Of a stretch of 5,545 nucleotides of DNA, positions 1,930 to 2,764 are shown in pieces; the first letter of the stretch is position 1; each line of letters starts with the position of its first letter. Source of the DNA: a virus (taxonomy: Duplodnaviria > Heunggongvirae > Uroviricota > Caudoviricetes); the IMG/VR virus record IMGVR_UViG_2534681774_000013, positions 1-5,545 of that record; one strand, given 5' to 3'. The position numbers were made by a program, and so were the translations under genes. The notes under the pieces are model-generated. The model was given only the letters and a program-made list of their open reading frames with translations. It searched no databases and was not told where the DNA came from.

Positions 1930-2684
1930 TCACTATTACCAAAGGGCGACTGCTGACAATCAAGCAGTGGCGCGAAACATACGGACCGGGTAGCAACGTT
2001 GTACTGCCAGCAGAAGAAGCGGAAGAACTGGCACGAATTGCACTGGTATCGCTGGAAGCAGAGCCGGTGGCAAAGATTATAGCTCATTACCCATTAGGAG
2101 TTGACGTAGGCAAACAAAAGTTCGTACAGGCCATTGGAGAGCTTCCTGACTTTGGCGGATATCTATTTGCCGCCCCGCCAGCGCCGGTAGTGCCGGAAGA
2201 AGCAACTCCGGAAAACGTAGAAATGCTCTCTGGCTATGTTTCCACGTACAAATTAACCGATAGCGAGCGCGATATTGCTGCCGAAATATGGAACGCCTGC
2301 CGCACCGCCATGCTTCAGTCCGGAAACTTTCGGGAAAGCAAGAATTCGTCAACCAATAATTTTCGGGAAATCCCGGAAGCGTCAACCAGCTCTCCGGTAA
2401 CTCCGGCTCTTCTGCCTGGTGGTTTCACCATTGAGGAGGCGAAGGAATTACATGAAGACCTGGTACGCAGCCACATAAGCAAGGCCTTAAGTGGCGAAAA
2501 GATGAAAAAGAAAGATCGCGATGCTGATTTGCGCTGGATTCATGGCGTTATAGTTCAGGCAGCGTGGTTTGTAAAAGCATCACTGGAGCAGAATGCACTA
2601 TCGGGCAACTCTCCGGTAACTCCGGATGGTTGGATAAGCTGTAGTGAGCGAATGCCGGACGACAGGCAGGAGGTGAATCAATGA
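1926..2684 (+). CDS. Hypothetical prophage protein (252 aa) with Pro-rich linker, internal repeats and a possibly truncated C-terminal domain
   Basis: ATG 1926 with AAGGA (1913-1917) 8 nt upstream and ATGA overlap with the upstream frame. Contains AAPPAPVVPEEATPENV, a duplicated NFRE motif and two SPVTP motifs. Ends DGWISCSERMPDDRQEVNQ, which resembles the start of a W-I-S-x-x-E-R-L-P domain I recall from prophage proteins (DUF551-like; uncertain). Confidence 0.6.
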   Translation: MITITKGRLLTIKQWRETYGPGSNVVLPAEEAEELARIALVSLEAEPVAKIIAHYPLGVDVGKQKFVQAIGELPDFGGYLFAAPPAPVVPEEATPENVEMLSGYVSTYKLTDSERDIAAEIWNACRTAMLQSGNFRESKNSSTNNFREIPEASTSSPVTPALLPGGFTIEEAKELHEDLVRSHISKALSGEKMKKKDRDADLRWIHGVIVQAAWFVKASLEQNALSGNSPVTPDGWISCSERMPDDRQEVNQ

Positions 2685-2764
2685 GCTGGCCTGATGCAAT
2701 CGTAACTCTGGGGGTGGTATTCGCAGCAGCGTTTGTTGTGTTCTCGATTTGTCGATGGGGATAA
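2681..2764 (+). CDS. Small hydrophobic peptide (27 aa, MSWPDAIVTLGVVFAAAFVVFSICRWG), predicted single transmembrane helix
   Basis: ATG 2681 sits 7 nt after a strong AGGAGG (2668-2673) and overlaps the upstream stop (ATGA). Stop TAA 2762-2764. Below the length cutoff of the ORF track. Confidence 0.4.
   Translation: MSWPDAIVTLGVVFAAAFVVFSICRWG

Follow-up and report, generated by a model that had tools for sequence, protein, structure and literature searches.

A conserved 27-codon open reading frame in the early leftward region of lambda-like prophages as a likely missed gene for a single-helix membrane peptide

Main finding

The stretch of DNA analysed here (the window) comprises the 5,545 nucleotides (nt) of virus record IMGVR_UViG_2534681774_000013 of IMG/VR (Caudoviricetes) and represents the integrase-proximal end of a lambda-like prophage whose insertion site is mlrA (yehV). 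Within it, an 84-base gap between two prophage genes is filled by an open reading frame (ORF) of 27 codons, hereafter the small ORF, which a first-pass annotation made from the letters alone had proposed as an unannotated, translationally coupled gene for a hydrophobic peptide. The small ORF is almost certainly a real protein-coding gene. The best overall explanation, to which we attach a probability of roughly 0.55, is that it constitutes a micro-gene of the early-left operon for a coupled, membrane-inserted modulator peptide. Its elements in the window are as follows.

2668..2673, + strand: Shine-Dalgarno (SD) sequence AGGAGG of the small ORF, 7 nt 5' of the ATG, recognised from the sequence
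2681..2764, + strand: small ORF, 27 codons and TAA, product MSWPDAIVTLGVVFAAAFVVFSICRWG; ATG at 2681-2683, TAA at 2762-2764
2681..2684, + strand: ATGA overlap, a putative translational coupling site in which the start ATG shares TG with the upstream TGA at 2682-2684
2696..2752, + strand: codons 6-24, the predicted transmembrane helix core according to hydrophobicity scales
2757..2761, + strand: GGGGA, a weak ribosome-binding site of the DUF4222 gene, inside the last codons of the small ORF

The positions of AGGAGG, ATG and ATGA overlap given by the first-pass annotation were confirmed from the sequence, and its description of the SD as strong is borne out by a pairing energy with the 3' end of 16S rRNA of -11.6 kcal/mol. 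This is the strongest among ten gene starts tested in the window, and equally strong pairing occurs at only 2 of the 213 ATGs on both window strands. By length alone the small ORF is unremarkable, the window holding 93 ORFs of at least 20 amino acids (aa). The GGGGA of the downstream gene has a duplex energy of -5.5 kcal/mol and a 7-nt spacing to its ATG at 2769. No promoter- or terminator-like site was found near the small ORF on either strand by crude consensus scans, the whole window gave no Rfam match at E up to 1, and no stable RNA fold was detected at the small ORF, where folding is weaker than in shuffled sequences (z=+1.42).

Conservation of the reading frame and start signals

The least biased sample consists of 82 loci retrieved via the downstream DUF4222 gene and not via the peptide. 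An intact 27-codon ORF is present in 81 of them, the remaining locus having an extra G in a G-run; the frame is thus kept in related prophages, one of the points on which the first-pass annotation had let its proposal stand or fall. Two deep alleles occur among these loci, MSWPDAIVTLGVVFAAAFVVFSICRWG and MTWPEALTTVGIAMAVALVVYSICRWG, which share 59% identity at the protein level and about 69% at the DNA level, whereas the DUF4222 gene beside them is 99.6% identical. Furthermore, tblastn located 27-codon ORFs with 52-63% identity in 933W, ArgO145, Av-05 and a phage labelled Actinobacillus, the match overlapping the last 4 nt of an upstream gene, a different one each time.

A wider set, obtained by a nucleotide profile search of 301 sequences, contains 298 evaluable copies, 291 of which have exactly 27 codons. 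Length variants include one in-frame 2-codon deletion (25 codons) and the copy of the P1-like phage SJ46 (24 codons), the stop is lost with read-on in two copies, and only three copies are disrupted (two frameshifts and a conversion of W3 to a stop in Shigella phage POCJ13). In total, 35 peptide and 62 DNA variants were distinguished, with 18 distinct DNA sequences encoding the commonest peptide ('MTWPEAF...'). The translation start was analysed in 166 distinct contexts of 700 nt each. The ATG overlaps the TGA of an upstream ORF as ATGA in all 166, in agreement with the coupling geometry described earlier, and AGGAGG or GGAGG precedes the ATG in 152. The first base of codon 2 is always A (Thr, Ser or Asn), by which the upstream TGA is preserved.

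Selection on the encoded peptide and choice of strand

For part of the set the retrieval pattern fixed codons 1-6 and 24-26, and the whole-ORF ratio of nonsynonymous to synonymous polymorphism (pN/pS) of 0.29 is therefore biased; the selection analysis was redone on codons 7-23 only. For these codons the sense frame gives a pN/pS of 0.42. Four of the other frames give values of about 1.0-1.2, and the antisense frame whose wobble positions fall together with those of the sense frame gives 0.34. On a neighbour-joining/parsimony tree, synonymous changes make up 62 of the 148 sense changes where 26% would be expected (p=2e-5); the excess is equally strong in the wobble-sharing antisense frame (p=2e-6). 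Because wobble positions are shared, synonymous counts are unable to separate the two strands, and the assignment to the sense frame is based on how conservative the substitutions are, on stops, and on the conservation of start, stop and SD. Amino-acid changes in the sense frame are conservative (mean BLOSUM62 +0.51 vs -0.28 for random single-base changes) and create no stops, whereas those in the antisense frame are not (-0.43 vs -0.25) and include two inferred stop-creating changes. The comparison of synonymous with non-synonymous changes, suggested by the first-pass annotation as a check, thus returned a synonymous excess accompanied by conservative replacements in the sense frame only, and at the level of sequence the substitution pattern is that left by selection on the peptide product.

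Two alternatives would deny the sense frame its coding status. It is extremely improbable that the true gene lies on the opposite strand, as annotated in one RefSeq phage record, that of POCJ13 (gp73, 42 aa). Such a gene would account for the low pN/pS of the wobble-sharing antisense frame, which is open in 105 of 110 contexts, but this frame lacks an ATG in most contexts and its boundaries would fall in variable flanks, while the conserved block spans exactly the interval from sense SD to sense stop; its amino-acid changes, among them the two stops, show no bias towards conservative replacement, and no minus-strand promoter-like site lies nearby. Very improbable as well, and largely refuted, is a chance ORF in a non-coding spacer with hydrophobicity as a by-product of base composition. 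Short ORFs are common in these 5.5 kilobases (kb), and all three antisense frames are open over the 84 nt in the window; however, chance would hardly keep frame, length, start, stop and SD in 166 contexts down to 52-59% peptide identity, together with a coding signature, in the sole strongly hydrophobic short ORF of the window.

As regards POCJ13 itself (locus L297, 1201-1334), Trp3 of its sense copy has changed from TGG to the stop TAG, and the antisense gp73 is probably a gene-caller artefact.

A single hydrophobic helix with conserved ends

The product is very probably a membrane-inserted single helix. Its description as essentially one transmembrane helix in the first-pass annotation is supported by a Kyte-Doolittle mean of 2.63 over residues 6-24 and by a summed Hessa-scale free energy of -1.85 kcal/mol for the same residues, which form the best hydrophobic window in all five alleles tested. 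Among the 27 short ATG-initiated ORFs (20-45 aa) of the window, the small ORF is the only one whose best 19-residue Kyte-Doolittle mean reaches 2.0 or more. The positive-inside rule is an established predictor of membrane topology, and from the acidic N-terminal end and the Arg at the C-terminal end it predicts an N-out/C-in orientation.

Both ends of the peptide are conserved, as M-S/T-W-P-D/E-A at the N-terminus and Y/F-S-I-C-R-W-G at the C-terminus. Across 34 peptide variants, M1, W3, A6, A15, S22, R25 and W26 are invariant and P4, G11, A17, I23 and C24 nearly so; position 5 is always acidic (D or E), position 21 aromatic (Y or F), and positions 7-14, 16 and 18-20 vary among hydrophobic or small residues. 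The helix has no lining of charged or strongly polar residues. The idea that G11, A15 and S22, taken as invariant, form one helix face was dropped after a Fourier/permutation analysis of per-position entropy (p=0.95), the pattern of conservation running end-to-end (N-cap and C-terminal half) and not along one face. Profile searches against Pfam, PHROG, NCBIfam (three alleles), PADLOC and PDB returned nothing above threshold for the peptide.

Among the database entries P0057-P0062 and P0032, some contain in-frame Ala-Met or Ala-Val repeat expansions within the helix (GIAMAMAMAMAMAV...), which add two residues each time and bring the length to 31-35 aa, and one of 42 aa carries a 15-residue internal duplication.

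Window layout and mosaic contexts

Positions 2400-3200 of the window are 100% identical to sequences of Escherichia coli O55:H7 RM12579 and O111:H2 12A. The order of genes on the + strand is Ead/Ea22-like genes, the Eaa-like gene immediately upstream of the small ORF, the DUF4222 gene, a 44-aa gene, excisionase, integrase and the 3' part of mlrA, with the following coordinates for those nearest to the small ORF.

1926..2684, + strand: upstream gene, Eaa-like 'phage protein' (RefSeq name), whose termination feeds the small ORF
2769..3011, + strand: downstream DUF4222 gene (Pfam DUF4222, E=8e-14), 4 nt past the small ORF stop
3015-3149, + strand: 44-aa gene
3168-3422, + strand: excisionase gene
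3456-4742, + strand: integrase gene

Residues 235-250 of the upstream protein match only positions 1-16 of the 68-position DUF551 profile in Pfam, and a BLASTP comparison with a full 185-aa DUF551 protein indicates that the remainder of the domain is absent. After WISCSERMPDD the protein continues directly with the usual C-terminal ...QEVNQ, which corresponds to an internal DUF551 deletion relative to its 185-aa relatives. Further upstream, one extra C at about 1684-1685 in the window (ATTTCCAG vs ATTT-CAG in phage PhiR5_1) splits a 171-aa gene (1413-1929) into overlapping ORFs at 1380-1691 and 1585-1929, and the RM12579 equivalent of this gene is a frameshifted pseudogene according to RefSeq. 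At the other end of the window, the mlrA frame (4817-5071) ends after ...RGQDYP and covers the MerR helix-turn-helix (HTH) domain and only the beginning of the MlrA helical domain (positions 1-32 of 75). It is followed by an insertion-sequence (IS) transposase ORF at 5153-5545 (HTH_Tnp_1, E=5e-12) that extends past the window end. In RM12579, mlrA continues intact, so that the window mlrA seems to be cut both by the prophage and by the IS element.

The surroundings of the small ORF are highly mosaic. At least four unrelated upstream C-termini precede it, namely ...EPPQEVNQ (full DUF551), ...ISVEDILR, ...NIEQKVNQ (933W p77) and ...LKKKGMNQ (Av-05), with a pyrophosphohydrolase-like gene as a further upstream neighbour in some contexts. 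On the downstream side, DUF4222 follows after 4 nt in 62 of the 166 contexts, about 47 have a mok/hok type I toxin locus at a distance of about 153 nt, and many other neighbours occur elsewhere; the downstream neighbour often stands 150-370 nt off. Since the neighbours vary on both sides, the mobile unit consists of the SD and the small ORF. In 933W, the small ORF belongs to a cluster near attR (ant, dksA-like, ea22-like, p77, small ORF, hok) and not to the region between exo and xis.

The spacing between the small ORF and mok/hok-sok is nearly fixed at 153-154 nt, sometimes about 317 nt (e.g., L084 = 933W, positions 1201-1650, and L087), and may reflect either a shared mosaic junction or a functional tie. 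A mosaic breakpoint is also visible at the 3' end of the small ORF when the window is compared with loci L022 and L031, the DUF4222 and 44-aa genes being at least 99% identical and the small ORFs 67-69% identical.

Distribution and annotation status

The locus was detected in at least 1007 of 5426 complete E. coli genomes, at 1199 chromosomal and 150 plasmid places, a count that represents a lower bound because the 104-nt query misses divergent alleles. With tblastn, matches were obtained in 94 phage records, including 933W, VT2-Sakai, VT1-Sakai, BP-4795, Min27, Stx2 II, ArgO145 and Av-05, and in 226 plasmid records from Escherichia, Salmonella, Klebsiella and Shigella; 217 of the plasmids are non-mobilizable, and those listed are mostly 90-120 kb in size. 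Both the virulent Vequintavirinae phage Av-05 and the P1-like phage SJ46 carry the small ORF. Its assignment to prophages in the first-pass annotation is therefore correct for the lambda-like and Shiga-toxin prophages and too narrow in view of Av-05, SJ46 and the non-mobilizable plasmids of about 90-120 kb. In the species-representative genome set, solid matches are confined to Escherichia and Shigella, and no homologue was found in the CPS-53 prophage of E. coli K-12, which has the DUF551 gene yfdS.

Matches in Acinetobacter, Xanthomonas and Segatella lie on contigs of 369-1780 bp and look like contamination. Actinobacillus phage vB_Apl-pPE4 (L087, 1150-1650) has the same 27-aa peptide and the same last 23 upstream residues as ArgO145, followed after the stop by 933W-type sequence leading to a hok gene. 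The host labels or assemblies of such records (L087, L092, L094, L095) may be contaminated.

The description 'unannotated' holds for the RefSeq record NC_017656 (RM12579) and the GenBank records of PhiR5_1 and BP-4795, in which the gap is empty, and has to be qualified for a few GenBank records in which the 27-aa peptide appears under the name hypothetical or 'bacteriophage' protein and for entry P0041, a 40-aa hypothetical protein on 427 contigs that starts from an upstream in-frame ATG in another upstream context. A collection of 15 billion proteins lacks the exact 27-aa window peptide and contains two other alleles named 'hypothetical', 'bacteriophage' or 'prophage' protein. As seen in a protein database search with a concatenation of two alleles, gene callers mostly record lengthened forms, such as P0041, stop-loss forms and the in-frame Ala-Met expansions. 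The 90%-identity clusters to which the peptide is assigned are represented by DUF551 proteins of 121 and 185 aa, whose C-terminus reads ...PEPPQEVNQ and in which the peptide does not occur. The label 'DUF551 domain-containing protein', attached to the peptide in some records, was consequently rejected, as the peptide has no Pfam hit; the label is a clustering and naming artefact carried over from the overlapping upstream gene.

Proposed expression and role

The window genes are oriented like those of the early leftward operon of lambdoid phages, which has pL as its promoter and is kept repressed in lysogens (PMC10789677). Considering the lack of an own promoter, terminator or structured RNA, the small ORF would be transcribed within the long leftward early transcript (ea22 ... 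xis-int operon), and in the window context its product probably belongs to the early lytic cycle and not to the lysogenic state. Ribosomes terminating on the upstream gene would re-initiate at the overlapping ATG, aided by the strong SD. The product would then insert into the inner membrane with its acidic W-P-D/E N-terminus in the periplasm and its basic C-R-W-G C-terminus in the cytoplasm, where it may bind a larger inner-membrane protein, whether the host's own or that of an incoming phage, and thereby serve early takeover or exclusion.

The toxin, holin-like, exclusion and modulator roles listed in the first-pass annotation are speculative. That the peptide is a partner-binding modulator rather than a toxin is proposed tentatively, at somewhat less than an even chance. 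This view is favoured because both interface ends and the C-terminal half are conserved while the helix middle drifts among hydrophobic residues, and because many single-pass regulators of 25-50 aa provide a precedent (PMC12648545). In addition, the presence of the small ORF not only in prophages but also in virulent phages and phage-plasmids suggests a general infection-stage role (takeover, exclusion or counter-defence) that is not specific to lysogeny. In a bolder and rather doubtful form of the same joint reading, the peptide would be the founding member of an unnamed family of phage micro-proteins of 24-27 residues that bind one inner-membrane machine via W-P-D/E-A and Y-S-I-C-R-W-G and are exchanged as mosaic pieces among Shiga-toxin/lambda-like prophages, P1-like phage-plasmids and virulent coliphages. 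Candidate targets may include a DNA-entry transporter, a protease or a membrane-bound defence effector, and the outcome may be early superinfection exclusion, host takeover or counter-defence.

Several observations weigh against this interpretation, beginning with the low pN/pS and the synonymous excess of the wobble-sharing antisense frame described above. The counts of intact copies are partly ascertained, as most loci were found via the peptide or a back-translated pattern. The argument for partner binding is weakened by the lack of helical periodicity in the conservation pattern, which thus points to no single binding face; nor did the surroundings of the small ORF show a consistent partner gene across the 166 contexts. 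Small hydrophobic peptides with few flanking residues are typical of type I membrane toxins too (PMC12648545). Finally, the searchable literature, including EHEC and Enterobacteriaceae small-protein studies, does not contain the peptide string, the peptide is absent from the supplements of the three E. coli small-protein studies examined, and neither of these sources yielded a trace of it by ribosome profiling (Ribo-seq) or proteomics.

Among explanations that accept the ORF and assign it a different role, a membrane-damaging toxin of the type I or holin-like kind, whose oligomer would dissipate the proton gradient and arrest or kill the cell, for example for early host shutdown or as an abortive or exclusion device, is unlikely, though more probable than the others. 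Type I toxins resemble it in size and shape (less than 60 aa, one helix, few flanking residues; PMC12648545), and mok/hok lies downstream in more than a quarter of the contexts, as counted above. The arrangement typical of such toxins is nevertheless missing, as no antisense promoter, RNA family match or SD-sequestering structure was detected, and the strongest SD of the window combined with coupling is the opposite of their repressed translation; Hok/Gef and other toxin families are unmatched, and the helix is without charged or strongly polar lining. The holin-like function suggested by the first-pass annotation fails on position, size and tail, the locus lying outside any lysis cassette and only three residues following the helix instead of a charged holin tail. 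It is improbable that the peptide has no function and that the ORF is kept as a translational relay or as a homology patch for recombination. The chain in the window is indeed tight, with the ATGA upstream, 4 nt to the next ATG and a weak ribosome-binding site inside the ORF, and breakpoints fall at the ORF, as the contrast between DUF4222 and the small ORF illustrates. However, with variable and often distant downstream neighbours many contexts offer no target for a relay, and neither a relay nor a patch would yield a synonymous excess with conservative replacements, a fixed length of 27 codons and invariant end residues. A programmed -1 frameshift that joins the helix to the upstream protein to form a membrane-anchored Eaa/DUF551 protein, the free peptide being secondary, is highly improbable. 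The small ORF frame is open for at least 12 codons 5' of the ATG, the internal AGGAGG could stimulate slippage, and databases contain fused or N-extended forms (P0033, P0039, P0049, 'GGESMTWPEAF...'); on the other hand, neither main context has a slippery heptamer 5' of the ATG, the upstream genes come from unrelated families, and the fused entries are rare (1-3 contigs each) and resemble partial contig-end calls or frameshift mutations.

Data on membrane stress were also considered. Phage 933W, which we take to be a close relative of Phi24B, has its small ORF near attR and thus outside exo-xis. The lower degP and htpX induction on infection with a Phi24B mutant without the exo-xis region (PMC10789677) was therefore set aside as a sign of a membrane-stressing product.

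If the peptide is made, the reference annotations of 933W, BP-4795, Stx2 II, ArgO145 and Av-05 are each short of one gene, as are roughly a fifth of complete E. coli genomes, and the missed gene would be positioned to be strongly expressed early, with a product directed to the host membrane. Transporters, kinases and proteases are often re-tuned by small membrane proteins, and conservation across temperate, plasmid-like and virulent phages makes this peptide a reasonable candidate for exclusion or host takeover. The case also exemplifies a problem of small-ORF annotation, the gene being 6 nt under the usual 90-nt limit of gene callers, which detect it only if it is lengthened by mutation or by an upstream in-frame ATG.

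Comparison with known systems

The small ORF shares with ea22, ea8.5, orf60a, orf61, orf63 and orf73 (PMC10789677) the same operon and direction, a non-essential and mosaic character, and a poorly known function; the products of these genes, in contrast, are soluble, named and studied, and the present membrane peptide is not mentioned in that work. In comparison with type I toxins (Hok/Gef, IbsC, TisB, ShoB and DinQ), a short hydrophobic helix and an association with mobile elements, often just upstream of hok/sok, are common features, and with 27 aa and one helix the product lies within their size and helix range. Unlike them, the small ORF has no antisense RNA match, own promoter or sequestered ribosome-binding site, and its translation signals are maximal. 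Membership in Hok/Gef was rejected, as Pfam, NCBIfam and PHROG gave no match for three alleles and the real mok/hok are separate ORFs about 153 nt downstream.

Holins possess at least one transmembrane domain and a charged hydrophilic C-terminal tail and are typically about 60-150 aa long. The 27-aa peptide, with only R-W-G after its helix, was rejected as a holin on these grounds and because its locus lies between the Eaa/DUF551-like gene and DUF4222, upstream of xis-int and without a lysis cassette. The single-gene lysis proteins phiX174 E and phage M LysM have one helix and inhibit host membrane enzymes; they cause lysis and belong to phages with small single-stranded DNA or RNA genomes. 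By analogy, the small ORF product would share with them a phage origin, one helix and an expected helix-helix contact with a host inner-membrane protein, whereas its gene occupies a non-essential early region of large double-stranded DNA phages that have their own lysis cassettes. The PDB and Pfam searches revealed no similarity of the peptide to proteins of this kind.

KdpF (29 aa), AcrZ (49 aa), MgtS (31 aa) and CydX (37 aa) are single-pass proteins that tune larger membrane proteins (PMC12648545). Identity with KdpF was rejected, as TIGR02115 scored 14.7 bits against a cut-off of 26.85 over only 12 hydrophobic residues, and no kdp genes lie nearby. The small ORF differs from these four in being phage-borne, in having no adjoining membrane-protein gene as a partner and in showing no sequence relationship to them, and it resembles them in its small size, one helix, few flanking residues, aromatic and charged interface residues and the tendency to be missed by gene callers. 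It thus represents a well-supported missed small gene in the class of small single-pass membrane proteins, a solid but ordinary addition whose kind is not surprising.

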